A stretch of DNA of 64,000 nt. Source: Bacillota bacterium. GTDB taxonomy: Bacteria; Bacillota; Clostridia; Saccharofermentanales; DTU023. The notes beneath the pieces were generated by a model. That model did no database searches, was not told the DNA's origin, and saw only the letters and a program-made list of their open reading frames with translations. Both the position numbers and the translations under genes were made by a program. Positions 18,212 through 32,689 of this stretch are shown in pieces (position 1 is the first letter of the stretch; every line of letters begins with the position of its first letter). The stretch spans positions 5,899 to 69,898 of the forward strand of contig JAKPXB010000038.1 of the NCBI GenBank assembly GCA_029570375.1. Direction: 5' to 3'.

Positions 18212-18294
18212 GCGGACATGGTGGAATTGGCAGACACGCTGGATTTAGGTTCCAGTGGGAAACCATGCAGGTTCGAGTCCTGTTGTCCGCACCA
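18212..18294 (+). tRNA. tRNA-Leu (anticodon UAG), type II with long variable arm, encoded CCA
   Basis: Acceptor GCGGACA/TGTCCGC. Anticodon stem CTGGA/TCCAG with loop TTTAGGT (TAG at 18246-18248). T-loop TTCGAGT. Ends in ACCA. Confidence 0.93.
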
Positions 18295-18303
18295 GATATC
18301 CTT

Positions 18304-18336
18304 GAAAGCCCCTTGTTTGGGGCTTTCGACTTCTTG
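18304..18336 (+). terminator. rho-independent terminator after tRNA-Leu
   Basis: GAAAGCCCC TTGTT GGGGCTTTC stem. The downstream T content is modest. Confidence 0.6.
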
Positions 18337-18478: not shown

Positions 18479-19639
18479 ATGAATAAACCCAAACCAGACC
18501 GTTGTGTTTCCATCCTGCGCGAGCTGGTGGCCACGGATACGCGGCAGCCGGAAGGGAGAGAGCGCCGGCTGACGGATTATATCGAGCGGATATTCGCGGG
18601 GTTCGATGTCGAGACTCGGCGTATAGACCACAGCGAGGAGAGAAGTTCTCTGGTCGTGAAACTCCCGGGCGTTTGTCCGGACGGGGGTATCGGGTTCTTT
18701 GCCCACCTCGATACCGTCGCGTTTGGCGATGAAGCCATTTGGACAGATGAGCCGCTGAGCGCGGTGATCCGGAATGGGGTGATGTATGGGCGGGGGACGG
18801 CCGACATGAAAGGCGGAGCGGCCGCGATGCTTGAAATGGCGCTCTGCCTTCTCGAATCCGGTACTATGCCGCCCAAACCTGTCTATCTCTGTTTCACCGC
18901 GGATGAAGAAAAGGGAGGGACCGGCGCCGCGAGTCTGCTTGATCTGCCGTGGATACGGGAGTTGGAATGCGGAGTCTTCTGTGAACCGAGCGCTGAACGC
19001 ATCGGTGTCAGGGAGAAAGGAGCGCTTTGGATGCGTGTCAGCATCCGGGGCGTACAATCGCACAGCTCCAACCCGGCCATCGCTGTCAATGCATTGGATA
19101 AGGCCTTCGAGTTTTATCATCGGCTGATTGAGCGCATTGATTTCGGGCCGGCCGATCCGCTTCTCGGCCGGACGACAGCGGCAATGACACAGATGCACGG
19201 AGGGGTCATGACCAATGTCATCCCGGGAGAAGCATGGTGTGAAATCGACATCCGGATGCTGCCTGGACAGCCGACTCATGTCTTTCTCGACGAAGCATTC
19301 GAGGCGAAGCGGGAACTTGAAAAACAGGAACCGCGCCTGAAGGTTGATATTACCGTGCTCAGCCGTCATGAAGCAAACAGCACGCCTGAGGATCACCCGT
19401 TTGTCCGGCGCGTCCAGCGTGTGTGCAGTGCCGGAGGGTTCAACAGTTCACTCAGAGGATTGCTGTTTTTCACCGACGCCGGCCGCGTCACGCCGACACT
19501 GAAGATTCCCTATGTCATCTGGGGGCCCGGCGACGACAGGGAAGCCCACCAGATCGACGAGAAAATTGAGCTCTCTTCCGTTCACCGGATGGCAGGTCTT
19601 TACCTGGACTTAGTCATGTTTAGCCAATCGTCTTCTTAG
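18479..19639 (+). CDS. M20 family metallopeptidase (ArgE/DapE-like)
   Basis: M20 motifs HLDTV, GRGTADMKGG and ADEEKGG. Composition is GC-rich like the host. Confidence 0.85.
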   Translation: MNKPKPDRCVSILRELVATDTRQPEGRERRLTDYIERIFAGFDVETRRIDHSEERSSLVVKLPGVCPDGGIGFFAHLDTVAFGDEAIWTDEPLSAVIRNGVMYGRGTADMKGGAAAMLEMALCLLESGTMPPKPVYLCFTADEEKGGTGAASLLDLPWIRELECGVFCEPSAERIGVREKGALWMRVSIRGVQSHSSNPAIAVNALDKAFEFYHRLIERIDFGPADPLLGRTTAAMTQMHGGVMTNVIPGEAWCEIDIRMLPGQPTHVFLDEAFEAKRELEKQEPRLKVDITVLSRHEANSTPEDHPFVRRVQRVCSAGGFNSSLRGLLFFTDAGRVTPTLKIPYVIWGPGDDREAHQIDEKIELSSVHRMAGLYLDLVMFSQSSS

Positions 19640-19674
19640 TGGCTTTGATAGTACATTACCGAATAGCCAGTTGC

Positions 19675-20433
19675 TTAAAGAGTCATTAAAATATCGACCA
19701 ACTGTTCGGCAAGCAATGACGCATATGTTTGTCCTTTTTCAACGGAGGCGAGGCAGGGGTTCCCGATCGTTCCGTTGTCCGGAGATAATTCACCGGTCTG
19801 CCAGCCTGAATAATATGGTTGAAAATCGAGCTCATTGCAGCGGTTAGCTGAGATTTCATCTTTTTTTACCAAATTCTCTCTGTAGAACAACATAAGTGAT
19901 GTTTCTCTTTCGCCAGCATGAATATCAGAAAGAGAACAGGATTCAAAGATATGTGTGTTTTCTGATGAAGAAAAGGTATTAGACCAAAGGCTAATTAAAA
20001 ACACTTTTGTTCCATACTTTTGCTCCCATTCCTGTGAGCAGGCATTAATCAGATCCGTATTGCCGCCGTGTGAATTAAACACAACAAGTTTTTTAAACCC
20101 ATGAATAGATAGGCTTTCAATAACATTTTCTATAATGGATGCAATCGTACGACAGTTCAGGGAAACCGTTCCCGGGAAAGATAAGTGCTCGTGGCTGTTT
20201 CCGTAAAGTAACGGGGGAAGGCACAGGATATTTTTTAAAAGATTGTTATGCATTGAATTTCGCTGACAAATTGATTGCGCTTGCTTTAACACTTCCATGA
20301 GAATCAGATTATCTGTTCCGAGAGGTAAATGCCTGCCATGTTGCTCAAACGCACCAATAGGGAAAAGAATGAGTGATCGGCTCCGATCAATTTTATCAAT
20401 ATCCGCCCACGTAAATTCTGATAAATTGTCCAT
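19675..20433 (-). CDS. creatininase-family (creatinine amidohydrolase fold) hydrolase
   Basis: Family motifs EQHGRHLPLGTD, NSHGGN and HAGERETS. ATG at 20433 sits 1 nt after the stop of the upstream gene. The longer track ORF to 20712 overlaps that gene. Confidence 0.85.
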   Translation of the reverse strand: MDNLSEFTWADIDKIDRSRSLILFPIGAFEQHGRHLPLGTDNLILMEVLKQAQSICQRNSMHNNLLKNILCLPPLLYGNSHEHLSFPGTVSLNCRTIASIIENVIESLSIHGFKKLVVFNSHGGNTDLINACSQEWEQKYGTKVFLISLWSNTFSSSENTHIFESCSLSDIHAGERETSLMLFYRENLVKKDEISANRCNELDFQPYYSGWQTGELSPDNGTIGNPCLASVEKGQTYASLLAEQLVDILMTL

Positions 20434-20434
20434 G

Positions 20435-21799
20435 TTATAGCCCTGCTCTCTGAAGTATGCTGTCAACTTTTCTGCGGGCGGCTCGTGCTGTTTTCTCCTC
20501 ATCGATTCCGAGGAGAAAACCCTTCTCGGCGACAAGATTTCCATTGACGTATACAAAGTGAGCCGGCTTTGATACACCGACTGTTCCCAGAAGATTCGCT
20601 GCGTCCTTCTCAGAGCAAACAAACTCCAGGGAGGAAGCCTCAACAGCAAAAAAGTCAGCGGCTTTTCCTTCCTCGAGTGATCCGATATCATCGCGTCCAA
20701 GGATTCCGGCACTCCCTCTCGTGGCGATTTTTAACATGTCATATCCTGTAGGGGCTTTATCTGACCAGGTGAGTCGATGTAATAAATAGGCTGCCCGGAT
20801 TTCAGCCATCAGGTTAGAACAATCATTACTGGCGCTTCCGTCGACTCCCAGTCCAAGAGGGACGCCGAGTTCGAGCATTTCGGGGACTCTGCAGACACCT
20901 GAGGAAAGTTTCATATTCGAGACAGGGCAATGAGCGACACCGGTGCCTGTCTTCGCCAGACGCTCTAATTCTTCATCGTCAAAATGGATACCGTGAGCAT
21001 ACCAGACATCATTACCCGTCCACTCGCAGCTCTCCATATAATCGAGAGGTCTTTGTCCGAACAAATCGAGACAGAACTGTTCCTCATCGTGAGTCTCGCA
21101 GAGATGCGTATGCAATCTGACCCCGAGTTTTCGCGCGAGACGAGCGGATTCTTTAAGCAGATCGGTAGTGACGCTGAATGGTGAACAGGGAGCCAGGGCG
21201 ATCTGTCTCATCGAAAAAGGAGAAGGATCGTGGAATTTATTGACGAGTCGTTCGCTATCTTCCAGAATAGTTGTTATATCTTGAACGAGATCATCAGGAG
21301 GCAGTCCTCCCTCACTCTTGCCGCGAGACATACTGCCTCGTGTGGCGTGTAAGCGTATGCCCAGCGCTTCAGCCGCGTCAAACTGCCTGTCAATGAAATT
21401 ACCAGAGTGTTCTTTTGGGAAAACATAGTGATGATCCATCACTGTTGTACAGCCATATCTCAGGAGCTCTCCCATCGCTGTCAAAGAACTATAATAAATA
21501 GATTCTTCATCTAAATAGCGCCATATTTCATACAACGCCTTCAACCAGGGGAACAATTCGAGATTCTGAACTTGAGGAAGGTTTCTTGTAAATGTTTGAT
21601 AAAAATGATGATGTGTGTTGATGAGGCCAGGATATAAAATAAGGCGGCTTGCATCGATTGTGCGATCAGCGCTCACGTCCTCATAACCAATATAATCAAT
21701 GATGTTCCCGTGAATACAAAGGTTTGCATTTGCCAATACACGATTCGAGTCGTCTACTGTCACGATAGCCTTTGCGTTCTTAAATAGCGTTTTACTCAT
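20435..21799 (-). CDS. amidohydrolase, 8-oxoguanine deaminase-like (COG0402 / SsnA-TRZ-ATZ group)
   Basis: PGLINTHHHFYQTFTR, TRGSMS..GGLPP, IALAPCSPFSVT, RLHTHLCETHDEEQFC, HCPVSNMKLSSG and GLGVDGSASND. ATG at 21799 follows GGAG; 21811 is an alternative start. Confidence 0.85.
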   Translation of the reverse strand: MSKTLFKNAKAIVTVDDSNRVLANANLCIHGNIIDYIGYEDVSADRTIDASRLILYPGLINTHHHFYQTFTRNLPQVQNLELFPWLKALYEIWRYLDEESIYYSSLTAMGELLRYGCTTVMDHHYVFPKEHSGNFIDRQFDAAEALGIRLHATRGSMSRGKSEGGLPPDDLVQDITTILEDSERLVNKFHDPSPFSMRQIALAPCSPFSVTTDLLKESARLARKLGVRLHTHLCETHDEEQFCLDLFGQRPLDYMESCEWTGNDVWYAHGIHFDDEELERLAKTGTGVAHCPVSNMKLSSGVCRVPEMLELGVPLGLGVDGSASNDCSNLMAEIRAAYLLHRLTWSDKAPTGYDMLKIATRGSAGILGRDDIGSLEEGKAADFFAVEASSLEFVCSEKDAANLLGTVGVSKPAHFVYVNGNLVAEKGFLLGIDEEKTARAARRKVDSILQRAGL

Positions 21800-21851
21800 T
21801 GCCAACTCCATAATGTGATATTGATGATGCCAATAAACCGTTTTCTTATGA

Positions 21852-21882
21852 CTGCACTTGCCGTTTTAAACGGCAAGTGCAG
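21852..21882 (-). other. intercistronic stem-loop between the two amidohydrolase genes
   Basis: Perfect inverted repeat CTGCACTTGCCGTTT A AAACGGCAAGTGCAG (15-nt arms, so a 13-14 bp stem once a minimal loop opens). No U-tract on either strand. Confidence 0.7.
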
Positions 21883-21899
21883 CTGTCTACTTAAATCAC

Positions 21900-23147
21900 T
21901 TATAAGCCTTCTCTGTGACGTATGACTTGCGGCGGGAAAAATAAATGTTCCGTAATTCCCGTTACGCAGGCGTCAACACCGTCCACTTTGCAATAACGCG
22001 CTGTGGGTCGAGAATCCTTACCCCGGAAAGCGACAATAGCTCCATCTACAATAACCATCGAATTGCCAAATGGATCGCCGTGCTCAATCGAGTCGAGCAC
22101 ATCGTTTCCACATCCTCCCGGCGGTTTATCCAAAACCTGTAAATCTGCTTCACGTCCAACCTCTATTTTCCCGGTGTTTAACCCATATATATCAGCAGGA
22201 TTCCCGGTTGCCATAGCGATACAGTCAACGGCGGATAACTCGTTCAGTGAAGAAGCTTTGACAATCGCTCTATTAATAGCGCCGGACAGAGAAGCTTGTC
22301 CGGTCGGCGCATCGCTGCCGAACAAGACCCGCTTCAGTTGAGATTTTTTATCCAATGACTGAAGGATTTTGTTGAAATTAACAAAGTTGCCATTAACAAC
22401 AAGTTCCAACGGAGTTTCGCACTCATCGATTAAGCGTTGAATATGATAGTACTCGACAGCAGTGGATCCACCATTCGTGTGTGCAACTTTATGAGGCTTG
22501 AGTTTGAGAATTGCTTCAGAGGTAACCCATGAAGAACCGGGAATCGAAGGCGGCGCCAAGTGAATAGAGTAGAAAAAATGATATTTCTTTGCCCACTCGA
22601 GCATAGGGGCGACTTCTTCGGGATCGGAAAGCCCCCCTCCACCTATTTCTGCGATAATCCAAACGCCAGCTTCGGCCATTTCTTTGAAATCCTGTTCCGT
22701 TAATCCGTGCACAAGGACAAGGGCGCCGCCGTGCATTTTCAGAGCTCCTCCAGGTCGAAAGCGATCGAAAACTCTCTTCGCCATAATAGCAGAAGCCTTG
22801 CAACCAATAGGATCATCATAGAAACGAGGCCATCCGGGACCCTGCTCCCCCTCAGAGATCATACTTGTTGTGCCTCCGTATAATGCGTCGGAATAACAAC
22901 CTACTGCATTTCTTTGAGGTGCGTAATCATCAAGTGTGTTATGCACATGGGCATCGATAAAGCCAGGCGCAACACATTGACCATCGGCATCAACGACTGT
23001 TTCGATGTCAGTCTTATCAACTTCGTTGTAATAGCCGATTTCGTGGATTAGTCCATTGCGGACTACAATCGTATCACCGGGTAAGATGCCTTTGCCAAGA
23101 TCGCCACTTATGATCTTGTCAATGTTTTTTACTAATAGATCGTTCAT
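21900..23147 (-). CDS. amidohydrolase, enamidase-like
   Basis: PGFIDAHVH metal site. LKMHGGALVLVHGLTEQDFKEMAEAGVWIIAEIG, IPGSSWVTSEAILKLKPHKVAHTNGG and FGSDAPTG resemble, from memory, the Eubacterium barkeri enamidase family. ATG at 23147 follows AAGGAGGAAT. Confidence 0.75.
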   Translation of the reverse strand: MNDLLVKNIDKIISGDLGKGILPGDTIVVRNGLIHEIGYYNEVDKTDIETVVDADGQCVAPGFIDAHVHNTLDDYAPQRNAVGCYSDALYGGTTSMISEGEQGPGWPRFYDDPIGCKASAIMAKRVFDRFRPGGALKMHGGALVLVHGLTEQDFKEMAEAGVWIIAEIGGGGLSDPEEVAPMLEWAKKYHFFYSIHLAPPSIPGSSWVTSEAILKLKPHKVAHTNGGSTAVEYYHIQRLIDECETPLELVVNGNFVNFNKILQSLDKKSQLKRVLFGSDAPTGQASLSGAINRAIVKASSLNELSAVDCIAMATGNPADIYGLNTGKIEVGREADLQVLDKPPGGCGNDVLDSIEHGDPFGNSMVIVDGAIVAFRGKDSRPTARYCKVDGVDACVTGITEHLFFPPQVIRHREGL

Positions 23148-23217
23148 ATTATTCCTCCTTCTTTTCATTAATGAACAATCGATTATGCAATGATGCATAG
23201 TTAATGTAAGTGTTACC

Positions 23218-24174
23218 TTAGGTGTCAGTCATGGCTTCTCTGTTATAATTTGTGCCTAATGCGGCTGGTGATTTTGAATTTTTGGAAGTCATAATCATAA
23301 CGAGAACGGTTAGCAGGTAAGGAAGCATTAATAGCAGATGGTAAGGAACATTTAATCCTACTGATTGCAGTCTAAGCTGAAAAGCATCCATCGTTCCAAA
23401 AAGAAGCGAACTGAAAAAAACCGGTAATGGTTTCCACCTGCCGAAAATAACGATAGCTAAAGCGATGAACCCCCGGCTCGCTGTAATATTGTCAACAAAT
23501 CGGTTTAAGGACAATACTGACAGAAAAGTCCCTCCCAGACCGGCCAGTACTCCGCAAATCATCATAGAAAGATATCTTGTTCTACAGATATTCACGCCCA
23601 TCGTTTCCGCCGCCAGCGGGTATTCGCCTGCTGATCTGATTTTAAGGCCGAAGAAAGTTCTGTTGAAAACGAAGCGGGAGACTATGACCAAAGCGATGGC
23701 TATGTAAAAAAGGAAGTGCTGACTAAAAAGAATTTCACCGAGGACAGGTATATTGGACAAAAGGGGAACAGGTGTTGAAACACCTCCGGAGACATTCGCC
23801 ATCGGAGGGGCAATGGTCACTCCGAAAACAACCCTGTACCAAAAACTGGTGAATCCCAGGGCAAACATATTTAGAACGATTCCAATCACAACATGTTGAG
23901 TTTTCCACTGGATGCAGGCGGTTGCCATTAGAAGAGCCTGAAGCATTCCAGCCAATGCGCCAGCTAGGAGGGCGAGAACGACACTCCCCGAATAATGGCC
24001 AACTATAAAAGATGCAAACGCACCCATGAGCATCTGTCCTTCGAGATTAATATTCAGGATACCGGATCTTTCTGCATATATTTCGCCGAGCGCGGGCAGC
24101 ATAATCGGAATAGACATCCTGACCCCGGCCGCGAACAAAGAGACTAAGAAATCACGTGTTAACAAAACAGACAT
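23218..24174 (-). CDS. ABC transporter permease (BMP/nucleoside-type system, second permease)
   Basis: 318 aa multi-TM protein in an operon with the BMP-family binding protein. Confidence 0.88.
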   Translation of the reverse strand: MSVLLTRDFLVSLFAAGVRMSIPIMLPALGEIYAERSGILNINLEGQMLMGAFASFIVGHYSGSVVLALLAGALAGMLQALLMATACIQWKTQHVVIGIVLNMFALGFTSFWYRVVFGVTIAPPMANVSGGVSTPVPLLSNIPVLGEILFSQHFLFYIAIALVIVSRFVFNRTFFGLKIRSAGEYPLAAETMGVNICRTRYLSMMICGVLAGLGGTFLSVLSLNRFVDNITASRGFIALAIVIFGRWKPLPVFFSSLLFGTMDAFQLRLQSVGLNVPYHLLLMLPYLLTVLVMIMTSKNSKSPAALGTNYNREAMTDT

Positions 24175-24177
24175 TAA

Positions 24178-25272
24178 TTATGATTCCTCCCTTTCGTCTG
24201 GTGGCAGTCTTTTTCGCTGGGCATGTTGAAAATTTGCACGGATTTTTGGCATGACGAGAATGGAAAAAACCACGACACTCTGGATAACGGTTACGATGCT
24301 CGTTGGTACATTCACCGCTATTTGCATAGAGTTGACCCCAACGGTCAGAGTACTGATGAGTAAACTGCCGACAATTATACCCAGAGGCCGATATCTCGCC
24401 AAAATGGCGATCATAACCGCTGTAAAACCAAAGCTTGAGCTTATTCCTTCTAACACTCGATAGTAGGTGCCGAAAACTTCAATCATCCCCGCGAATCCCG
24501 CAAAGCCGCCCGCGATAAACATAGATGTGACAGACAGTTTTTTAACAGCGATTCCGCCGTATTGTGCGGCTTTTGCAGATTTCCCAATCGTGAGAAGCTG
24601 GAACCCAAAAACAGTACGGTTCATGACAAACCAAACGAATAAAGCCAGTAATGCGACAAAAACAATCCCCCAATGGGCTCTTGAACCTGCGATAAGTTTA
24701 GGTAACTGTACGATCTGGGGGATTGCTCTGGTCTGGGGAATTCCTCCAGGTGCCTGAAGCGGATTCGAAACGAGAAAACCGATCAGGAAGAGGGCGATAT
24801 AGTTCATCATGATAGCGATAATCACTTCACTGGTATCAATTGTTGCCCTTAAAAATCCGGCGAATCCTCCCCATATTCCGCCCGCAAGTATCGATACGCA
24901 GATCGCGGCGATCCAAACAATCCATACGGGTGCTTCCAGGTAAATACCAATAATAGCCGCGGAAATGGCCCCCATATAAAACTGTCCATCACCGCCCAAA
25001 TTTGTCATGCCTGTTGCAGCCGCGATACTTACCCCGAGGCCAATTATTATAATCGGCGTTGATTTCGCGAGTATTTCCAAAACTGAGCTGGTATTTCTGA
25101 AAGCTCCTCGGATAATGAATTCAAAGACTGAAATAGGGTTTTCACCTAGTGATAATATAAATATGATGCTTACAATAATGGCCATTGCGATGGCAAGGCA
25201 GGTATTTGCAACGGAATCCAGAAAACTTGGTCTGTTTTCTCTTTTCTTAAACAAAAACTGTTTCATCGGCAA
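24178..25272 (-). CDS. ABC transporter permease (BMP/nucleoside-type system, first permease)
   Basis: 364 aa multi-TM protein. It overlaps the ATPase gene end by 10 nt. Confidence 0.88.
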   Translation of the reverse strand: MPMKQFLFKKRENRPSFLDSVANTCLAIAMAIIVSIIFILSLGENPISVFEFIIRGAFRNTSSVLEILAKSTPIIIIGLGVSIAAATGMTNLGGDGQFYMGAISAAIIGIYLEAPVWIVWIAAICVSILAGGIWGGFAGFLRATIDTSEVIIAIMMNYIALFLIGFLVSNPLQAPGGIPQTRAIPQIVQLPKLIAGSRAHWGIVFVALLALFVWFVMNRTVFGFQLLTIGKSAKAAQYGGIAVKKLSVTSMFIAGGFAGFAGMIEVFGTYYRVLEGISSSFGFTAVMIAILARYRPLGIIVGSLLISTLTVGVNSMQIAVNVPTSIVTVIQSVVVFSILVMPKIRANFQHAQRKRLPPDEREES

Positions 25273-26810
25273 GCTTCCTCATCCGAGCCCCCCATTAACA
25301 GACCGATCTGACTTAAACTCAGTTCATCAGGTCTGAAAGGGCGTGATAATTTTCCGTTAGATATAACGGCCATCTGATCCGAAAGTGATATTATTTCATC
25401 AAGTTCTGTCGAGATGAGAAGGATTCCCGCTCCGGAAGACAGCAGTTCAAGCAAGCGGGTATGAATAAATTCAATTGCCCCGACATCTAACCCCCTAGTC
25501 GGATGCATGGCGACTAATACAACCGGATCTGATGATATTTCTCTGGCCAGAATTACTTTTTGGATATTCCCCCCTGAAAGCTGTCCTACTAACATGTCGC
25601 GATGGGGGATACGTATGTCATAGTCTTTAATGAGTCGATCACCAAGCATATGCAGCTTTTTTTTGTCAATCTGTCCGAAATGTTTTCTGAACGTCTTTGA
25701 ATCTGAATTTCTGAAAAAAATATTCTGATCTAGAGAATAACTGGCAATAGTTCCCATACTTCGTCTGTCTTCCGGGACAAACGCAAGCCCCATCTGTTTT
25801 ATTGAGCGGGAGCTCCTGTTAGTAATCTCGTTTCCATTTAGAAATATCTTTCCCTTTGTTACATGCCTGAGGCCTGCCAACGCTTCAACTAACTCTGATT
25901 GGCCATTTCCATCAACACCGGCAATCCCAAACAGTTCTCCTCTGTGGATAGTCAGACTCAGGTCTTTTATCGTTTGAGTATTCCGCTTACCATGAACCTC
26001 TATATTTTTTATCTCCAAAACCCGGTCTTTCATTTTGTTATCAAATAACCGGGGGCCTTTCTTTACCGAAAAAACAACGTCGCGGCCAACCATTCGACAA
26101 GCAAGATCTTCTTTGTTCGTTCGATTAGTTGTGACACTATCGACAACTTTTCCTTTGCGAAGAATAACAACGCGGTCACTAATATCCAAAACTTCATCCA
26201 GTTTGTGGGATATGAAGATAATGGATAGACCAGCCGCCTTAAGCTCCTTTAGCGAACTAAATAATTTTATTTTTTCTTGTTCATTTAATACACCTGTGGG
26301 TTCGTCGAGTACGAGGATCCGACATTCCCCAAATAGTGCTTTCAGAATCTCTACCTGCTGCTGTAATCCAACTGGCAAATCCTGAACAATCGTGTCCAGG
26401 ACAATTGATAAATTATATTGAATGGAATGTTTTTTTATCTGCTCCCGAATGACCTGATGATTCACTAAACCGTTTCGTTTCCCTGAGATACTGAGTGCAA
26501 TATTTTCATAAGCATCAAACGCAGGAATAAGCATAAAATGTTGATGTACCATCCCGATCCCTAGAGCAATGGCATCAAGTGGAGAGTTGATCGATACAAC
26601 CTTTCCATCAATGCTTATTTCTCCGTGGTCTGCCTGGTATAAACCAAAAAGAATATTCATTAATGTGCTCTTGCCGGCACCGTTTTCTCCAAGTAAAGCA
26701 ACAATTTCTCCTTCATTCACTTTAAGATCTATTTGATCATTGGCGGGTTTTCCATCAAAAAATTTTGAGATACCCTTCATCTCAAGGATGGTATTTGCGG
26801 GATTAAGCAC
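25263..26810 (-). CDS. ABC transporter ATP-binding protein with duplicated NBD (sugar/nucleoside type)
   Basis: First NBD has GENGAGKSTL. The second NBD is degenerate, with LSGGNIQKV. GTG at 26810 is preferred because the track ATG at 26855 lies inside a 12-bp hairpin. Confidence 0.85.
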   Translation of the reverse strand: MLNPANTILEMKGISKFFDGKPANDQIDLKVNEGEIVALLGENGAGKSTLMNILFGLYQADHGEISIDGKVVSINSPLDAIALGIGMVHQHFMLIPAFDAYENIALSISGKRNGLVNHQVIREQIKKHSIQYNLSIVLDTIVQDLPVGLQQQVEILKALFGECRILVLDEPTGVLNEQEKIKLFSSLKELKAAGLSIIFISHKLDEVLDISDRVVILRKGKVVDSVTTNRTNKEDLACRMVGRDVVFSVKKGPRLFDNKMKDRVLEIKNIEVHGKRNTQTIKDLSLTIHRGELFGIAGVDGNGQSELVEALAGLRHVTKGKIFLNGNEITNRSSRSIKQMGLAFVPEDRRSMGTIASYSLDQNIFFRNSDSKTFRKHFGQIDKKKLHMLGDRLIKDYDIRIPHRDMLVGQLSGGNIQKVILAREISSDPVVLVAMHPTRGLDVGAIEFIHTRLLELLSSGAGILLISTELDEIISLSDQMAVISNGKLSRPFRPDELSLSQIGLLMGGSDEEACR

Positions 26811-26829
26811 GATGATCGCCTTTCTCTTT

Positions 26830-26860
26830 CCACCGTGCCTCTGTAAAGGAGGCACGGTGG
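26830..26860 (-). other. intercistronic stem-loop between the binding-protein and ATPase genes
   Basis: Perfect 12-bp stem CCACCGTGCCTC / GAGGCACGGTGG with a 7-nt loop and no U-tract. Confidence 0.7.
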
Positions 26861-26887
26861 GACTGGTTGTGAAAAAACGGGATTGAA

Positions 26888-27946
26888 CTAATTATCCATC
26901 TTATGGTCGATGCGTTCGAGAATGTAGGGAACTACTAATGTTCCCGCCTTGATCTCTTCAGTTGCTTTAGCCACCATATTCTTTATTTCCTGTGGGATTT
27001 TGCTGTCGAAATTGTGCCATGGGGTAATAAAACACGTACCATCTTGCACCCCCGGTTCCCATAAGCCGCCAAACGATCCGTCAAGAATCCGCTTTGCCTG
27101 TTTGACTATAACGCTCTTATTGTCAGTTACAATACATGTCATGATGAGTTCAGGAGCGATTTCAAACTGGTCAGCACCGTACCCGACAATCTTTATATTT
27201 TTCTCAATACAGGCTTGTATGGCGCCCATTCCCGTGCTGTCAGCTGTTTGACAAATAATATCCGCCCCCAAGTCAATTTGTGCTTTGGCGGCTTCTTGTC
27301 CCTTGTTAGGATCTTCAAAAGTGCCTGTCACGACTCCGTAAATTTTAGCGTCTGGATTGGAAAACTCAACGCCTTTGACAAAAGCAGCCATATTAGAAAG
27401 CTGTGAGGGTATTTCCAGTCCCGCTACGTAACCAATAATGTTAGTTTCAGTCATTCCACCTGCTACGATGCCTGCTAAATAAGCCGCTTCATACTCTTTC
27501 ATGTCCATGAAACCTACATTTTTTGGCATATTATCAACAGTAACGCCATCAGGCATCTTTCCCGAAACGAAAAAATTCACTTCCGGAAAATCGGGTGCCA
27601 CCCTAATAGCAGGCTCACCAAACTCAAACCCATGCCCTATTACGAGATCGAACCCTGAGTTTGCGTAGTTGCGAAAAGCTTCTTCAATTGCTGAGATTTG
27701 AACGCTTTCCGTGAAGGCAACTTTGTATCCTTCCTTCTCCAGTTCCTGAAGTCCTGCATAAGCATTAGCGTTCCATCCCCCGTCGTTAAGTGAGCCGGGG
27801 AGAATCAAGGCAACTTTTAATTCTTTCTTCTGTTTTCCATCCATTGAAGAAGGAGTTGATTGTTCTGGCGTTTTTCCCCCTTTATCACATGCGAAACAGC
27901 TGATAAGCAAGAGCATGCAAAGGATTAATGCAAAAAATCGTTTCAT
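26888..27946 (-). CDS. BMP-family (PnrA/Med/TmpC-like) ABC substrate-binding lipoprotein
   Basis: Lipoprotein signal MKRFFALILCMLLLISCFAC, then the BMP fold (KVALILPGSLNDGGWNANAYAGL). The start is taken at the internal Met of the track ORF. Confidence 0.88.
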   Translation of the reverse strand: MKRFFALILCMLLLISCFACDKGGKTPEQSTPSSMDGKQKKELKVALILPGSLNDGGWNANAYAGLQELEKEGYKVAFTESVQISAIEEAFRNYANSGFDLVIGHGFEFGEPAIRVAPDFPEVNFFVSGKMPDGVTVDNMPKNVGFMDMKEYEAAYLAGIVAGGMTETNIIGYVAGLEIPSQLSNMAAFVKGVEFSNPDAKIYGVVTGTFEDPNKGQEAAKAQIDLGADIICQTADSTGMGAIQACIEKNIKIVGYGADQFEIAPELIMTCIVTDNKSVIVKQAKRILDGSFGGLWEPGVQDGTCFITPWHNFDSKIPQEIKNMVAKATEEIKAGTLVVPYILERIDHKMDN

Positions 27947-28034
27947 TATCTTCTCTCCTTTTTGGTGCGACTCGTGGTTGCCGCGGTTTGAATCATTCGA
28001 TTGTCGAACCGTATACCGTCGACTGTATATTGTT

Positions 28035-28063
28035 AAAGTATCATTGAATTTAAATAAAGTCAA
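28035..28063 (-). promoter_or_regulatory. candidate promoter of the island transport/hydrolase operon
   Basis: On the minus strand: TTGACT, 17-nt spacer, TACTTT. Confidence 0.3.
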
Positions 28064-28074
28064 TGATAATCTTC

Positions 28075-28101
28075 TTGCATTTGGTGTTAATAATGTATAA
28101 T
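28075..28101 (+). promoter_or_regulatory. candidate promoter of the GntR-family gene
   Basis: TTGCAT, 15-nt spacer, perfect TATAAT. It is followed immediately by the palindrome TTGTACAA (28102-28109). Confidence 0.35.
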
Positions 28102-28240
28102 TTGTACAATAACGCTAAGTATGATTGAGTTTAAATTTATAGAAATATGTTTAATCTCCTTAGCATTAAACTAGAATCTATCTTCGCAAATATGGTATAT
28201 CTTTTATTGCAGAAGTAGGATATAGAGACAGGAGATAAGA

Positions 28241-28993
28241 ATGAGTTTTCAGTTCGAAAAAGTCGGAAGAAGTATTACCCTTATCGAGAAGGCGTATAGT
28301 GCGCTTTTAAAAGTAATTGGAGAAACATCACCCAATCACAACAAGCTTCCTTCTGAAGAAGATATTGCCTGTATGCTAGGCGTTAGCAGAACAACCATAC
28401 GCGAAGCATTAAACCAATTAGTTTCTGAAGGTTTGATTTCCAAAGTTCCTGGCAAAGGTTACTATGCCCATCGATCTGTGCATGACCTCAAAAATAGAAT
28501 TGATCTATATCCTGATTTTTATAAATTATTGACTTGTTATTACAGAGAAGCCGTTTTGACAATAGCCAACATTGAGAAAAGAAGTGCATCTCCAAAAACA
28601 GAGATTGAGTTTAAGAAGAATGACATTAAAATTCGGGAAGTTTACGCCATGCGTTGGATTTATTCGGCAAATGGAACGAGAATGTTTGTCGGAGATCTTG
28701 AATTCCCTGTTGAGTATATCGTTAAGCCTTTCCGAGATTTAAATCATATAAAGGGGTTGTCTGATTTTTCAGATCAGTATATGCGTTTTCCTATTACGCA
28801 CTGCACAATGACTCTGGATATATGCACGTGTGTTGAGTCATCACAGGCTCTTGGACTCGGCGATCAGATCAAACCCGCTTTGTGTTGGTTTGAATCGATA
28901 TACAACTTAAATGATGAGATTATTGGTTGTGGCAGATATTTTATAAACCCCGACTCAATGAAATTATCCATCAATGCAGCTATCTTGAAATAA
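28241..28993 (+). CDS. GntR-family transcriptional regulator (HutC/UTRA-like)
   Basis: N-terminal winged HTH (SEEDIACMLGVSRTTIREALNQLVSEGLISKVPGKG) plus a roughly 170-aa effector domain. Divergent from the transport operon. Confidence 0.88.
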   Translation: MSFQFEKVGRSITLIEKAYSALLKVIGETSPNHNKLPSEEDIACMLGVSRTTIREALNQLVSEGLISKVPGKGYYAHRSVHDLKNRIDLYPDFYKLLTCYYREAVLTIANIEKRSASPKTEIEFKKNDIKIREVYAMRWIYSANGTRMFVGDLEFPVEYIVKPFRDLNHIKGLSDFSDQYMRFPITHCTMTLDICTCVESSQALGLGDQIKPALCWFESIYNLNDEIIGCGRYFINPDSMKLSINAAILK

Positions 28994-29001
28994 AGTCACA
29001 G

Positions 29002-29673
29002 TCATTCGATCGTCCAGACAATCCGGACGGTATCTTCCAGCGTGATGTCTTCGGGGTTGATGGCCAGACTCATTTTCTCCGAGTACGTGTCTTCCATCGC
29101 ACGCATTGATTTCATCGGCTCGACGCTGAAGGGCAAATCATCCCACGAGTAGTCGATCAGCGTGATTTCACCCAGTCTGACTCCCGCGGCACGCGCGAGC
29201 TGCTCCGCTTTGGCTTTGCAGTCTTTGATCGCTTCGCTTAGCAGTTCATTCTTTGCCGCCTCCGGATTCTTCAGCGTATAGATGACTCTGAACTCGGCGT
29301 TCGTGCCTGAAGACGCCAGCGCGAGGAGCGCCCGGCTGATCAGCGTGTTATCCGCCTCGAACTCGATCACCAGCTGGTGATTGAACTCGTATCCGATGAA
29401 AATATTGCGGTATTCGCCGCGCTCATCGTGAACGCCGTCATACTTGCTGTCGACAGAAAACCAGGTTGTTTTGAGGTCGGCCTTTCTGAAACCCTGTTCT
29501 GCGAACGCGGCCATGAGGAGATCTGTCGTCGTTGTCGACAGCTCTGTGGCTTCCTCGTAACTCGCTTTTACACCTGTGAGGGTTATCGGCAGCCTGATCA
29601 GATCGGGTACCGCCGAGATCCTGCCCTTCCCCGATACCCGTATGAGCCTTTTCTCCTGCGATTGATAATCCAT
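29002..29673 (-). CDS. SIMPL (DUF541) domain protein
   Basis: SIMPL-like sequence (LIRVSGKGRISAVPDLIRLPITLTG...). Composition returns to host-like GC. Confidence 0.8.
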   Translation of the reverse strand: MDYQSQEKRLIRVSGKGRISAVPDLIRLPITLTGVKASYEEATELSTTTTDLLMAAFAEQGFRKADLKTTWFSVDSKYDGVHDERGEYRNIFIGYEFNHQLVIEFEADNTLISRALLALASSGTNAEFRVIYTLKNPEAAKNELLSEAIKDCKAKAEQLARAAGVRLGEITLIDYSWDDLPFSVEPMKSMRAMEDTYSEKMSLAINPEDITLEDTVRIVWTIE

Positions 29674-29965
29674 CGTCTTTGTCCTTTCACAAATCATTTG
29701 ACAATCGTTCTGCTGATGTCAGACGCCCCTTTGTTTCCGACGCCGGCGCTTCTTTTTCGCGCTGTGTTTCTGCAGCCCTGTCCGTGCGGCTGTTTCTTTC
29801 TATAAAGAAACAGATGCAGGATTCCGGGATTACGCGGATGCCGCGTAATCCCGGCGCCCGTTCTCCATTTCAGCATACTATAAGAAAAGGGAAACAGGAC
29901 AAAAGGCGCGTTATTTGTTATTCTATTTGATGAACTGAATAGCGCTGAATCGAGGAAATCACTCT

Positions 29966-30703
29966 ATGAAAAAAATTTGTGAAACGATGGCGTCTTCGCG
30001 GCTTTTTGCCGGACTTGATCACGAAATCTATCACGATTACTGCAAAACGACCGATATTCATACTTACTGGAAGGGCCAGCTCCTTATCATGGAAGGCGAT
30101 CTCTGCAAAGGGATCGGCATTGTGATTGAGGGGCAGATCGCGCGTCAGAAGTATACGCCGTCCGGCGAGTTTACGACACTTGACCTGTTGAGCACAGGTT
30201 CTGTTTTCGGCGAAGATCTTATCTTCTCTACCCACAAAGTGTATTCTTATTCACTCGAAGCGCTGACGCATGTCAAAACAGTGATCGTTTCCCGCGAAGA
30301 TATTCTGTCGCTTATTTCGAAAAATCCGCGCCTTTTACTCAATTATCTGGCGCTTCTTTCCGATCGCAGCCTTGAGCAGGATCAGAGAATCCATCTTCTC
30401 TCACAGAAAACGCTTCGTCTGAAAATTTCCGGTTATTTGCTGTCACTTCTGGAAGAGCAGTTCAAGCACGAAGGGAAGACTCTTCGTGAAATCGGCAATT
30501 ACCCGTCGACCGCTTCTGTCGAGTTGCCTGTTTCAAAGGAAGTTGTCGCTCATCTTCTGGCCATGCCGCGTCCATCCTTTTCCCGCGAATTGATCAGTAT
30601 GGAAAAAGACGGGCTCATACGCGTCAACGGGCGCATCGTCTGGCTCAAAGATATCCAAAAACTGGCATGCGGTCTCTATGAGGATTGCGAAACGGAGGAG
30701 TGA
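29966..30703 (+). CDS. Crp/Fnr family transcriptional regulator
   Basis: cNMP-binding-like beta-roll N-domain and a C-terminal HTH (SKEVVAHLLAMPRPSFSRELISMEKDGLI). Confidence 0.88.
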   Translation: MKKICETMASSRLFAGLDHEIYHDYCKTTDIHTYWKGQLLIMEGDLCKGIGIVIEGQIARQKYTPSGEFTTLDLLSTGSVFGEDLIFSTHKVYSYSLEALTHVKTVIVSREDILSLISKNPRLLLNYLALLSDRSLEQDQRIHLLSQKTLRLKISGYLLSLLEEQFKHEGKTLREIGNYPSTASVELPVSKEVVAHLLAMPRPSFSRELISMEKDGLIRVNGRIVWLKDIQKLACGLYEDCETEE

Positions 30704-30855
30704 TTTCACCCGTCGCCACGTTTGAATACTTGAATGAGCGCGGAGGAGTTCTGCTCAGGTGTGGTATCTGTCTATCTGCTTGTGAAATCCTCGCGGCCAA
30801 AACTGACTGGTAAAGTGCAGGCGCCCTGAGAGGCTGACCTGATAAGGAGGCATTT

Positions 30856-32535
30856 ATGAGTTATAAACCGGATATTGAGATTGCCCAGGAGGCTGTCTTG
30901 CGTCCGATTGATGAGATCGCTGAAGAAGCGGGTCTCAATCCGAATTATCTCGAGCATTACGGAAAATACAAGGCGAAAGTTTCGCTTGAAGCCCTCAGAG
31001 GGGAAGCCCCCGGGAAGGGCCGGCTTGTCCTGGTGACCGCGATTACACCGACGCCTGCCGGTGAAGGCAAGACGACAACCTCAATCGGGCTGGCGGATGC
31101 TCTGAAGCGGCTGGGCAAGCGCAGTACGCTGGCTCTGCGCGAACCTTCCATGGGACCTGTCTTCGGTATCAAAGGAGGCGCGGCCGGGGGCGGCTATGCG
31201 CAGGTTGTCCCCATGGAAGATCTCAATCTTCACTTTACCGGCGATTTTCACGCGGTAGGCGCCGCGAACAATCTGCTGGCCGCTATGATCGACAATCATA
31301 TCATCAAGGGCAATCAACTGGGCATCGACCCGCGCCAGATCACATGGAAACGCGCCGTTGATATGAATGACCGCCAGCTCCGCTTCATTGTCGACGGACT
31401 CGGCGGGCGTGCGAACGGGACGCCTCGTGAGGATGGATTTGATATAACGGTCGCGTCCGAGGTCATGGCTGTCTTCTGCCTTTCAACATCAATCACAGAC
31501 ATGAAAGAGCGTCTGGGGCGCATCGTCGTAGGCTATACATATAGCGGCCGTCCGGTCACATGCCGCGACATCAAGGCGCAGGGCGCCATGGCTGCCCTTC
31601 TGAAGGATGCGCTGAAGCCCAATCTCGTGCAGACGCTCGAAGGAACGCCGGCCTACGTGCACGGCGGACCTTTCGCCAATATTGCTCACGGCTGCAATAG
31701 CGTCCTCGCGACGAGAATGGGACTTCACTACGCCGATTATCTCGTGACTGAGGCAGGATTCGGCGCCGATCTGGGCGCGGAGAAATTCATCGATATCAAA
31801 TGCCGCGCGGCGGGGCTCGCTCCGGATGCCGTGGTTCTTGTAGCGACCGTGCGCGCTTTGAAAATGCATGGCGGCGCGGCGAAAAATGAACTCAAAAACG
31901 AGAACCTTGAAGCGCTGAAAGCCGGAATCCCGAACTTAACACGGCATGTCAGGAATGTGATTGATGTATTCAGACGTCCCGTTGTTGTGGCGATCAACCG
32001 TTTCCCCGACGATTCGGAAGCGGAACTCGCACTGGTTCGCGAAGAGTGCGGGAAGGCCGGTGTCAACGCCGTACTTTCAGACGTTTGGAGCAGAGGAGGC
32101 GCGGGAGGCCTTGAGCTCGCTGAAGAAGTAGTCCGCCTCTGTGAGCTTCCGGACAAGGGCCCCCTTGGCTTTGCCTACGATATGGAGACAACGGTCGAGC
32201 AGAAGATTGGATCAATCGCCAAACGGATATACCATGCCGACGGTGTGGATTTCACCGGTTCAGCGGTAAAACAGCTGAAACAGATAAAGGAGCATGGTTT
32301 CGGCGGACTGCCTGTCTGTATCGCCAAAACACAGTACTCATTCACAGATGACGCGTCAAAAACCGGTGCGCCTGAGAATTTCAGGATATCGGTTCGCAGT
32401 CTGAAAGTATCGGCCGGCGCGGGCTTTATCGTCGCTTTGACAGGGGAGGTGATGACGATGCCCGGGTTACCCGCGGTGCCGTCCGCCGAGAAGATCGATG
32501 TGGATGAGAACGGGCGTATTTCAGGCTTGTTCTGA
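30856..32535 (+). CDS. fhs: formate--tetrahydrofolate ligase
   Basis: 559 aa with the [11 protein letters not shown]-loop and full-length FTHFS similarity. Confidence 0.96.
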
Positions 32536-32579
32536 TTCAAAATAGTATGGAGCAGCCATGGATCTATCCTGGAATAAAC

Positions 32580-32607
32580 GTGACAGCAGCGCGCGATGTG
32601 GTAAAAT
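32580..32607 (+). promoter_or_regulatory. candidate extended -10 promoter for the PucR-like regulator gene
   Basis: GTGACA, 16-nt spacer ending in TGg, then TAAAAT. Confidence 0.45.
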
Positions 32608-32689
32608 GCGAGAGAAGTAGCTGAGGCTAACGATTGAAAAACAGCGGCGGCGACGCCCCAACCACTTGAGAGAAGAAGAGGGCTCAAAC

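Follow-up and report, generated by a model that had tools for sequence, protein, structure and literature searches.

The block of ~9.3 kb at positions 19640-29001 of the window, by which we mean the whole 64,000-nt stretch of Saccharofermentanales DNA analysed here, is an AT-rich accessory gene cluster at an old, recombination-shuffled variable locus, and is not a fresh insertion of a mobile element. The account that we favour, with rather more confidence than doubt, is that the block is a catabolic operon of the accessory genome, exchanged horizontally and gained or lost by homologous recombination and deletion, and that the copy in the window has been re-imported.

The original prediction of an AT-rich block with sharp edges, based on reading the sequence, is borne out by GC content, tetranucleotide usage and GC3 alike. 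The GC content of the block is 0.435, against 0.550 in the remaining window; in 300-nt windows it drops at the left edge (19350 to 19950) from 0.56 to 0.42, and recovers at the right (28650 to 29400) from 0.39 to 0.56. Tetranucleotide distance to the remaining window is 0.34-0.44 in the block and 0.12-0.17 outside it. All eight block genes share the AT-rich style, with GC3 (mean 0.417, range 0.355-0.458) below that of every one of the 45 other genes of the window (mean 0.649, sd 0.037, minimum 0.545), such that there is zero overlap (z = -5.2 to -7.9; Mann-Whitney p = 4e-6), while the genes on both flanks return to the host style. Over the last 50 codons, GC3 is 0.65 and 0.72 in the flanking M20 peptidase and SIMPL genes, but 0.50 and 0.42 in the creatininase-family and GntR genes that face them, and thus the step is abrupt at the gene ends. 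The GC of the three codon positions in the block is 51.9/38.4/42.0, close to the 54.0/38.6/42.3 expected of a genome of 44% GC by the Muto-Osawa regression, with coefficients that reproduce the host genes of the window.

The borders lie where they had been placed, as rechecking of the junction coordinates confirmed. On the left, an M20 (ArgE/DapE-type) peptidase gene (18479..19639, + strand; Pfam; GC3 0.651) stops at 19639 and the creatininase-family gene at 19675, leaving a gap of 35 nt; on the right, the GntR gene stops at 28993 and the SIMPL/DUF541 gene (29002..29673, - strand; Pfam PF04402; GC3 0.696) at 29002, leaving 8 nt. Beyond the latter is a backbone of crp-family regulator, formate-tetrahydrofolate ligase (fhs) and PucR-like regulator genes (29966..33847, + strand; assigned by Pfam from the identical genes in a second strain, L083), which anchors the locus across relatives. 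Scans of the block and its borders uphold the earlier report of no mobility genes, repeats or terminators: we found no integrase or other mobility gene within the block, no direct or inverted repeats at its borders and no terminator-like site at either junction, nor did we find the cassette carried by a plasmid or phage. In its atypical GC and codon usage, self-contained accessory function, patchy distribution and proximity to a tRNA gene, the block resembles classical tRNA-linked islands that bear an integrase, and integrative elements. However, it lacks their integrase, terminal repeats and direct repeat of the tRNA 3' end. The only tRNA gene of the window, tRNA-Leu (18212..18294, + strand; ARAGORN; Rfam 55.9 bits), lies 1.35 kb to the left of the block, from which it is separated by the M20 gene of host composition, and no second copy of its 3' end occurs in the window.

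Pfam and NCBIfam searches confirm the content as self-contained: one GntR regulator, a four-gene ABC importer and three hydrolases. The seven operon genes, all on the - strand, are packed tightly, with -4 to 88 nt between neighbours, and have ribosome-binding sites. The first encodes a BMP/PnrA-type substrate-binding lipoprotein of 352 aa (bmp, 26888..27946; Pfam PF02608 Bmp, 9.6e-54), with an AGGAGAG ribosome-binding site ahead of its ATG and a lipobox, LLISC, in its translation; it matches PDB entries 4p98, 3s99 (the Brucella basic membrane lipoprotein) and 6pi5 (AtzT). There follow a fused double ABC ATPase (25263..26855; two ABC_tran stretches by Pfam), for which an alternative start at 26810 gives 515 aa and both 515-aa and 530-aa calls occur in assemblies, and two BPD_transp_2 permeases, permease 1 (24178..25266; PF02653, 7.5e-38), whose first 4 nt lie within the end of the ATPase gene, and permease 2 (23218..24174; PF02653, 2.3e-34). 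In combining a Bmp-domain lipoprotein, two such permeases and a fused double ATPase, the block matches the importers of the BMP/PnrA family, among whose binding proteins are also Borrelia BmpD (6shu) and Treponema TmpC (2fqw). However, its lipoprotein is only moderately similar to the solved binding proteins (E 1e-35 at best), and the importer falls under the cutoffs of the NCBI 'B6' BMP transporter models: the closest model to the ATPase is NF047930 (451 bits against a cutoff of 670), and that to permease 2 is the BMP-type 'B6' permease 1, again under cutoff.

The remaining three genes encode the hydrolases. AmidoB (21900..23147, 415 aa; Pfam Amidohydro_1 and Amidohydro_3) is an enamidase-like cyclic amidohydrolase, which reaches no NCBIfam equivalog but aligns over its full length with the enamidase of Eubacterium barkeri nicotinate fermentation (PDB 2vun, E 7e-92) and has more than 1250 homologues, many of them labelled enamidase by their sources. 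Unlike the E. barkeri enzyme, amidoB is found without nicotinate-fermentation genes, and its partners are of purine or nucleoside type. AmidoA (20435..21811) belongs to the 8-oxoguanine deaminase family of amidohydrolases, scoring above the cutoff of the NCBIfam equivalog NF006055 (576.6 bits against 532) and matching PDB 7ww2, an 8-oxoguanine deaminase, at E 5e-121, and by sequence it would join the 8-oxoguanine, isoxanthopterin and guanine deaminases (7ww2, 3hpa, 2paj). The characterised enzymes of this branch stand alone, whereas amidoA is embedded with enamidase-like and creatininase-like hydrolases and an importer. Its true start is likely 21799, giving 454 aa, since this start has a GGAG ribosome-binding site and there is none before 21811; most assemblies call the 454-aa form. 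A perfect 15-nt inverted repeat (21852..21882) lies in the 88 nt that separate amidoB from amidoA, and no T-run follows it on the operon strand. The last gene (19675..20433; GC3 0.39) encodes a creatininase-family hydrolase of 252 aa (Pfam PF02633, 1.6e-61), the length called in public assemblies; a 345-aa ORF reaching to 20712, which overlaps amidoA, is an artefact of ORF listing. The protein scores 113 bits with the NCBIfam creatininase model TIGR04448, under the cutoff of 235, and matches PDB 3lub and 1q3k (E 1e-16 to 1e-18).

Judged by family membership and gene context, the operon most likely serves the regulated uptake and hydrolysis of a purine-like compound. One minus-strand transcript would carry bmp, the ABC ATPase, both permeases, amidoB, amidoA and the creatininase-like gene. 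The lipoprotein may bind a purine-like nucleobase or nucleoside for import; amidoA would then deaminate it, amidoB would open the ring, and the creatininase-family enzyme might hydrolyse a further cyclic amide or formamide bond. In other genomes the hydrolase module is accompanied by nucleoside phosphorylase, nucleoside hydrolase, PfkB kinase and SIS genes. Known anaerobic routes of purine degradation are the clostridial 'xanthinase' pathway and the reductive 2,8-dioxopurine pathway (PMC12507026). Like these, the block would cleave a purine-type heterocycle hydrolytically in strict anaerobes, and it adjoins genes for a formate-tetrahydrofolate ligase and a PucR-type regulator; the genes that typify the reductive pathway, XdhD, YgfK, SsnA, HyuA, YgeW, YgeX and YgeY, are absent here.

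The full cassette, its gene order unchanged, was found in at least seven unrelated genomic contexts and host backgrounds, which supports its horizontally exchanged character. Within the Saccharofermentanales/Mageeibacillus group, relatives hold the cluster or its remains at the same locus, beside SIMPL-crp-fhs; one species has the complete set. All eight genes adjoin crp-fhs-pucR in the same order in L018-L020, in which the island proteins are 58-88% identical to those of the window and the flanks 81-85%, and amidoA is kept at the locus in all four nearest relatives. In the nearest, L024 (crp 89% identical), amidoA is followed, 122 nt from its start, by SIMPL (61% identical) and then crp. Across L024-L027 and L019, identity to the window is 75-89% for crp, 78-85% for fhs and 59-85% for pucR, and this backbone adjoins amidoA or the cluster in all but L027. 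AmidoA shows the same pattern of pairwise distances as crp, fhs and pucR, and for each of amidoA, amidoB, bmp and perm2 the four-point sums group the window with L019 against L022 with L029.

Presence of the cluster differs even within one species. L026 is conspecific with L019 (97-99% nucleotide identity), yet only amidoA is left at its locus. In L025 and L026, C-terminal pieces of amidoB broken by many stops lie between amidoA and crp; thus the deaminase-only state was derived by deletion, and the deleted allele is old. Between the amidoA genes of L019 and L026, 25 of the 43 mismatches fall in the last 100 nt, which points to a crossover inside amidoA. In strain L083, SNP density relative to the window is similar in the island (0.28%) and the flanks (0.35-0.7%), so the island must be at least as old as the separation of the two strains; saturation of synonymous sites between the window and L019 prevents dating of its arrival.

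Our favoured explanation of these results is that the cassette has passed horizontally among anaerobic Clostridia, and that the SIMPL-crp-fhs locus has held it or its decaying remains since before the species separated. Gain, loss and replacement would have proceeded by homologous recombination in conserved neighbours (amidoA, crp) together with deletion, which would explain the absence of integrase, transposase and border repeats. Flexible genomic islands, replacement or additive, are known from prokaryotic pangenomes to turn over by homologous recombination without integrases. The block shares with them variability at a fixed locus with conserved neighbours, presence that differs among close relatives and even within a species, a crossover visible in a conserved gene, and a lack of mobility genes or repeats. 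It differs in that only the right side, SIMPL-crp-fhs, is conserved here while the left side differs per lineage, and in that an internal gene, amidoA, is retained while the rest is lost. As the window copy resembles DNA equilibrated at ~44% GC, its likely source is an unsampled relative of lower GC, from which it would have been re-imported in place of the resident copy. Several points sit uneasily with this account. No donor is among the sampled genomes; the M20 gene adjoins the cluster in no other genome, which leaves homologous recombination on the left side unexplained; the island is no younger than the split from L083; and the persistent excess of AT in the cassette across many hosts could be a standing bias of accessory DNA and not the mark of repeated recent transfer.

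The last point is central to an alternative that we regard as unlikely, though deserving of serious weight, in which a single ancestral acquisition was followed by vertical inheritance only, and AT-richness is a property of rarely recombining or weakly selected DNA, through AT-biased mutation and less GC-biased gene conversion or selection, and no sign of recent transfer. The syntenic cluster in L019, the remnants in L025 and L026, distances that agree with the flanks, and island proteins conserved about as well as the flanking ones all suit such a history. So does the composition of the cassette, which in six of the seven hosts is richer in AT than the flanks (at or under flank GC in every background) and whose GC follows that of the host (0.35 to 0.52 while hosts range from 0.36 to 0.64), and so do the polymorphic segments of L019, at GC3 0.42-0.51, beside its fixed amidoA at 0.59. 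No donor was found either: among 5.8 billion proteins, the best non-self matches of amidoB (88%) and GntR (60%) are syntenic copies in a related species, and nothing outside the window's own species exceeds these values. However, amidoA is host-like in relatives at this locus (GC3 0.51-0.59 in L019, L025 and L024) but stands at 0.45 in the window, where the host mean is 0.65 and none of the 45 other genes falls under 0.545. The formate-tetrahydrofolate ligases of L025 and L026 are 96% identical yet differ in GC3 (0.53 and 0.62), so host GC3 shifts fast in this clade and a long-resident gene ought to have equilibrated. Furthermore, the excess of GC3 over GC1 and GC2 that signals partial amelioration is present in L063 but missing in the window island. 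The original prediction had held that phylogenies congruent with the flanks and presence in all relatives would refute it; of this, congruent amidoA distances and presence at the locus in relatives are indeed observed, but not in all relatives, and the composition is still foreign.

We consider it quite improbable that a distant low-GC Firmicute was the source of the block and that it entered in one step, by whatever mechanism, at a previously empty site between M20 and SIMPL, as the original prediction of a block wedged between two convergent host genes implied. The composition step exactly at the gene ends and the gaps of merely 35 and 8 nt would fit such an event, and low-GC organisms do hold a compositionally native copy (in L056, cluster GC 0.349 and flanks 0.357). 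However, no relative has an empty site with M20 directly convergent on SIMPL, homologues of M20 (62-70% identity) being non-syntenic, in unrelated contexts; fresh wedging is contradicted by relatives that already bear amidoA or the whole cluster beside SIMPL and crp; neither repeats nor mobility genes are present; and the nearest homologues of all compared genes are syntenic copies within the clade, not low-GC Firmicutes, of which L055 and L056 are only 44-74% identical. The block is no assembly artefact: a chimera with another organism's DNA might be suspected from the apparently metagenomic source and the abrupt change at both ends, but is extremely improbable, given that both junctions are identical to the base in independent JGI, Logan (several runs) and ENA assemblies (L001-L004) and recur on an 800-kb contig of L083 (99.5% identity, 0.5% divergent), and that related species carry the cluster beside the same crp-fhs genes.

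Divergent from the operon is the GntR-family regulator gene (28241..28993, + strand), which has the lowest GC of the block (GC3 0.355) and a Pfam match confined to the N-terminal wHTH (PF00392, 1.1e-13). A promoter scan and palindrome search delimit an operon control region at 28003..28090 (- strand), with a promoter-like site, TTAACA-16-TATCAT, at 28090-28063, one palindrome at 28039-28068 and another, the imperfect GTCGAACCGTATACCGTCGAC, at 28003-28023, just upstream of bmp; no riboswitch was found. The palindrome at 28003-28023 is probably the operator, to which GntR would bind as a repressor. The same GGTATACCGTCGAC-centred palindrome also precedes bmp in L019 and L022, and is thus common to three hosts; the GntR proteins of L019 and L022 are only 60% and 52% identical to that of the window.

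The block at 19640–29001 is a real compositional island. Its GC content is 0.435, against 0.550 in the remaining window, and when followed in 300-nt windows GC drops at 19350–19950 and recovers at 28650–29400. GC3 was computed for 53 window genes: the 8 in the block average 0.417 (0.355–0.458) and the 45 outside it 0.649 (sd 0.037, minimum 0.545), with z-scores of −5.2 to −7.9 for the block genes and no overlap between the two sets (Mann-Whitney p = 4e-6). Tetranucleotide distance to the remaining window is 0.34–0.44 in the block versus 0.12–0.17 elsewhere, which is 2–3 times background. The sharp AT-rich step of the original prediction is thus confirmed by all three measures. Its coordinates were likewise all right, with stops at 19639 for the M20 peptidase on the left (18479–19639), 19675 for the creatininase-family gene (creat), 28993 for the GntR gene and 29002 for the SIMPL gene on the right (29002–29673; true product 223 aa, not the 231-aa ORF), as were the 8-nt gap between GntR and SIMPL and the absence of terminators, our scan finding a terminator-like site at neither junction. 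The shift in GC3 is abrupt at the gene ends, the final 50 codons giving 0.65 for M20 and 0.72 for SIMPL versus 0.50 for creat and 0.42 for GntR.

Misassembly does not account for the joins: both are base-identical in independent JGI, Logan and ENA assemblies, and an 800-kb contig from a second strain is colinear across them at 99.5% identity. We likewise reject the idea that strand or expression lowers GC3 here, because the plus-strand GntR gene has the lowest GC3 of the block, while the minus-strand host genes SIMPL, 10397–11965 and 62328–63548 have GC3 of 0.68–0.70. Of the 45 host genes, 43 are on the plus strand, and over the window (1–64000) the cumulative GC skew climbs steadily; the skew declines across the block, and the seven-gene operon and SIMPL are on the minus strand. 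The lowest GC3 among host genes (0.545, z −2.8) is that of the crp-family gene at 29966–30703. The same gene has a GC3 of 0.55 in L019, a contig of a related species, so this low value seems to be specific to the gene and outside the island.

The block is a coherent GntR-controlled uptake-and-hydrolysis operon. Its seven minus-strand genes are packed tightly, −4 to 88 nt apart, and a ribosome-binding site precedes most starts. The product of bmp (26888–27946) is a BMP/PnrA-type binding lipoprotein (Pfam Bmp PF02608, 9.6e-54) whose lipobox was read in translation, and whose nearest structures are 4p98, the Brucella basic membrane lipoprotein 3s99 and AtzT 6pi5. A fused double ABC ATPase with two ABC_tran stretches (PF00005) is encoded by atp (25263–26855; the start is possibly 26810, giving 515 aa), and two BPD_transp_2 permeases (PF02653) by perm1 (24178–25266) and perm2 (23218–24174). 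Bmp lipoprotein, two such permeases and double ABC ATPase are together in one operon here, as in BMP/PnrA-type ABC importers; similarity to the BMP-family binding proteins 3s99 and 6pi5 suggests that this importer may take up a nucleoside or purine base.

Three minus-strand hydrolase genes complete the operon. The product of amidoB (21900–23147) is an enamidase-like amidohydrolase that reaches no NCBIfam equivalog, and resembles the Eubacterium barkeri enamidase of nicotinate fermentation over its full length (PDB 2vun, E 7e-92, residues 2–388 of 415). No nicotinate-fermentation gene set surrounds amidoB, which adjoins the importer, the deaminase and the creatininase-like gene, and in other loci PNP, PfkB and SIS genes. 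The product of amidoA (20435–21811; likely start 21799, 454 aa) scores 576.6 bits against the NF006055 equivalog (cutoff 532) and matches PDB 7ww2 (E 5e-121), making it by family score a putative 8-oxoguanine deaminase, which would convert 8-oxoguanine to urate. The 252-aa product of creat (19675–20433) meets only the broad PF02633 (1.6e-61), missing the TIGR04448 creatininase equivalog at 112.9 bits against a cutoff of 235. A longer, 345-aa version of this ORF (19675–20712) is a listing artefact that overlaps amidoA by 278 nt, the real gene starting at 20433. With families assigned to all eight genes, the earlier description of a self-contained set of regulator, importer and three hydrolases holds. 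The 88 nt that separate amidoB from amidoA contain a perfect inverted repeat of 15 nt, CTGCACTTGCCGTTT/AAACGGCAAGTGCAG, at 21852–21882. The operon strand has no T-run there, so the repeat is no canonical terminator; it may serve in RNA stability or processing.

The divergent gntR gene (28241–28993, plus strand) encodes an N-terminal GntR winged helix-turn-helix (PF00392, 1.1e-13), and no Pfam domain was found in its C-terminal ~170 residues by which to place it in an effector-binding subfamily (FadR, HutC, MocR or YtrA). The 294-nt control region contains a promoter-like TTAACA-16-TATCAT at 28090–28063 and an imperfect palindrome, GTCGAACCGTATACCGTCGAC, at 28003–28023, and a search of it for riboswitches found none. 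A palindrome of the type GTCGA(C)GGTATACCGTCGAC is kept upstream of bmp in the window, L019 and a further locus, L022, where the GntR proteins are just 60% (L019) and 52% (L022) identical to that of the window. The palindrome at 28003–28023 is taken to be the putative GntR operator.

The original prediction saw the block as freshly wedged between M20 and SIMPL, and looked for relatives in which these two genes meet at an empty site. No such junction was found; relatives instead hold amidoA or the full cluster beside SIMPL or crp-fhs. Homologues of M20 (70% and 62%; P0002, P0004 and P0007) lie in unrelated neighbourhoods and were uninformative as a route to an empty site. The best non-self homologue of amidoB (88%) is on contigs L018–L020 of the related species, which carry the eight genes in the same order. 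On its GntR side, that cluster directly adjoins a crp-family gene, a formate-tetrahydrofolate ligase gene (fhs) and a PucR-like regulator gene, and the same trio is at 29966–33847 in the window. Flank proteins are 81–85% identical between the window and L019, and island proteins 58–88% (creat 58%, amidoA 84%, amidoB 88%, perm2 85%, perm1 75%, atp 76%, bmp 83%, gntR 60%); the genes left of the L019 cluster have no counterparts in the window.

A scan with the crp protein, taking one genome per species, gave four relatives. An uncultured Mageeibacillus sp. (L024, crp 89%) has amidoA, a 122-nt spacer, SIMPL, one further gene and then crp. Two Clostridiaceae bacterium MAGs (L025, crp 83%; L026, crp 81%) have amidoA followed by crp, and a Saccharofermentanales bacterium (L027, crp 75%) has no island genes. 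In L024, the 17 nt past the SIMPL stop agree, at an identical offset, with the end of the window's GntR gene and its spacer in 11 of 17 positions, which is only suggestive of a leftover. Our conclusion is that the block was not freshly inserted between M20 and SIMPL, but occupies an old flexible locus. A sharp GC step and tight junctions alone do not define an insertion site; here, the cluster and its neighbours on one side have stayed together in several species. The fhs gene and PucR-type regulator gene (30856–33847) are beside amidoA in every relative that has amidoA. PucR is a family of regulators of purine catabolism; this hints that the retained deaminase is functionally linked to purine or one-carbon metabolism.

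How the locus changes is visible in L019 and L026. Both are of one species, with flanks 97–99% identical in nucleotide sequence, and this species is polymorphic for eight genes or amidoA alone. Comparing L019 3915–13606 with L026 8237–9928, the missing segments are replaced by unrelated spacers of 138 and 197 nt, and the breakpoints are at the amidoA start codon and within the last 100 nt of amidoA. Those last 100 nt, beside the creatininase segment, contain 25 of the 43 mismatches between the two amidoA genes, and the left flank is also mosaic; these are direct signs of homologous recombination at the locus. Stop-riddled pieces of the amidoB C-terminus (residues 320–354 and 359–388) persist in the amidoA-crp interval of L025 (9699–9903), and a weaker piece is in the same relative position in L026 (9823–9915). 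Because of these remnants, the deaminase-only state is taken as an old deletion derivative common to two species. The crp-fhs stretch of the window (29500–32500) diverges from the second strain by up to 3.4% per 500 nt, compared with ~0.3% elsewhere, which suggests a recombination patch next to the island.

These features are those of a recombination-driven flexible genomic island, having variable content at the same locus among relatives (the full cluster in the window and L019, amidoA only in L024, L025 and L026, nothing in L027) and, between L019 and L026, breakpoints in conserved flanking or internal genes. With a classical integrase-mediated island the block shares its deviating base composition and codon usage; the integrase, the flanking direct repeats or tRNA 3′ insertion and the empty site are all missing. 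As the original prediction had stated, the block holds no integrase or transposase, nor a recombinase: all eight ORFs belong to regulator, transporter or hydrolase families, and there is no space for a further gene. Direct and inverted repeats at the borders are chance-level matches only. The sole tRNA in the 64 kb, found alone in a search for riboswitches and other RNAs, is a tRNA-Leu (18212–18294) between LepA and M20, 1.35 kb from the block with M20 in between, and no second copy of its 3′ end was found in the window with 3 mismatches allowed. A strong terminator-like hairpin of 11 pairs (18302–18329) lies 3′ of this tRNA. Searches for known carriage of the cassette turned up nothing beyond homologues of <40% identity on plasmids (proteobacterial and actinobacterial) and, for phages, ABC-ATPase noise. 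No mobility machinery is visible, we infer, because recombination and deletion turn the cassette over at a locus that has long been flexible.

The distances of amidoA follow those of host genes: the window is 82–84% identical to L024, L025, L026 and L019 in amidoA and 84–85% in FTHFS (the latter without L024), and L025 and L026 share 94% and 96%, respectively. Four-point sums for amidoA, amidoB, bmp and perm2 all place the window and L019 together, opposite the L022 and L029 clusters. Thus congruence with the flanks, which would speak against import, is seen for amidoA; presence at the locus in all relatives is not, the cluster being missing in some. Among 5.8 billion proteins, the top non-self matches are syntenic L019-type copies (amidoB 88%, GntR 60%), and the 90%-identity clusters of all island proteins contain the window's own species only, always with the M20 junction. 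No donor was found, because proteins of >90% identity are all from that species, and the best matches are syntenic in-clade copies rather than copies from distant low-GC Firmicutes, which the original prediction had asked to look for.

The GC3 of amidoA is 0.59 in L019 and L026, 0.56 in L025 and 0.51 in L024, all native values, but 0.45 in the window, where the host mean is 0.65. Host GC3 moves fast in this clade (0.53 in L025 versus 0.62 in L026, despite 96% identical FTHFS). The Muto-Osawa relation, reportedly used by Lawrence and Ochman, predicts codon-position GC from genome GC. With coefficients that reproduced the window's host genes, it gives 54.0/38.6/42.3 for the island, where 51.9/38.4/42.0 is observed at 44.1% GC; the copy at the metagenome locus L063, unlike the window island, has the excess of GC3 that partial amelioration should leave. 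Vertical descent alone, with AT-richness a standing bias of accessory DNA, is the main alternative. In its favour, the cassette falls below its host in GC nearly everywhere, no donor has been found, the second strain's island has a SNP density (0.28%) near that of typical flanks, and the M20 left junction is without parallel elsewhere. The simplest reconciliation of composition with synteny is nevertheless re-import: through recombination, the window lineage would have acquired the entire cluster, anew or in place of a resident copy, from a lower-GC relative that is unsampled, an event of the kind documented by L019 and L026. At the old flexible locus beside SIMPL-crp-fhs, recombination and deletion bring in, replace and erode the cassette. 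Synonymous sites are saturated between the window and L019 (dS is not computable for the island genes, and is 1.7–2.4 for fhs and pucR), making the arrival undatable.

As an island, then, this is an ordinary accessory catabolic operon of atypical composition at a variable locus. The functional lead is more useful, and the hydrolase trio is what most merits experiment. A metagenome scan gave 55 loci. The full transporter-bearing cluster is present in at least seven host backgrounds, with cluster GC at or below flank GC in all: 0.435 against 0.55 in the window, 0.475 against 0.507 (L019) and 0.576 (L022), 0.422 against 0.484 (L029), 0.522 against 0.63–0.64 (L052 and L063), 0.368 against 0.441 (L055) and 0.349 against 0.357 (L056). 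On its own, the hydrolase module (amidoB-amidoA-creat or amidoB-creat) turns up often in human-gut contigs, at host-like GC, and the trio is widespread in digester and human-gut Clostridia (>50 loci, >1250 amidoB homologues). The module's partners elsewhere include other ABC importers, nucleoside phosphorylase, nucleoside hydrolase, PfkB kinases, SIS and YjbQ; because nucleoside-processing genes accompany it, we take the likely substrate to be a purine-like base or a modified nucleoside. The literature searched contained no description of a pathway for the trio, Barba et al. 2013 proving unrelated. Given this, and its recurrence near nucleoside-processing genes in gut and digester Clostridia, the trio could mark an unrecognised anoxic breakdown route for purine-derived compounds.

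More specifically, and as a tentative proposal that we consider possible rather than probable, the trio would specify an uncharacterised anaerobic route, working by hydrolysis alone, that acts on a purine-derived or modified nucleobase, such as oxidised guanine or an imidazolone-type intermediate. Under this hydrolytic-pathway reading, the importer may vary by host (BMP-, sugar- or PotD-type ABC), together with nucleoside-cleaving and ribose-handling genes, and the trio may move among Clostridia as a cassette without mobility genes. At loci from other metagenomes (L021, L035 and L038), with many of these contigs from the human gut, the module lies beside nucleoside phosphorylase, PfkB kinase, SIS and YjbQ genes, an inosine-uridine nucleoside hydrolase gene and an ADP-ribosylglycohydrolase-family gene, and is paired with three kinds of ABC importer.
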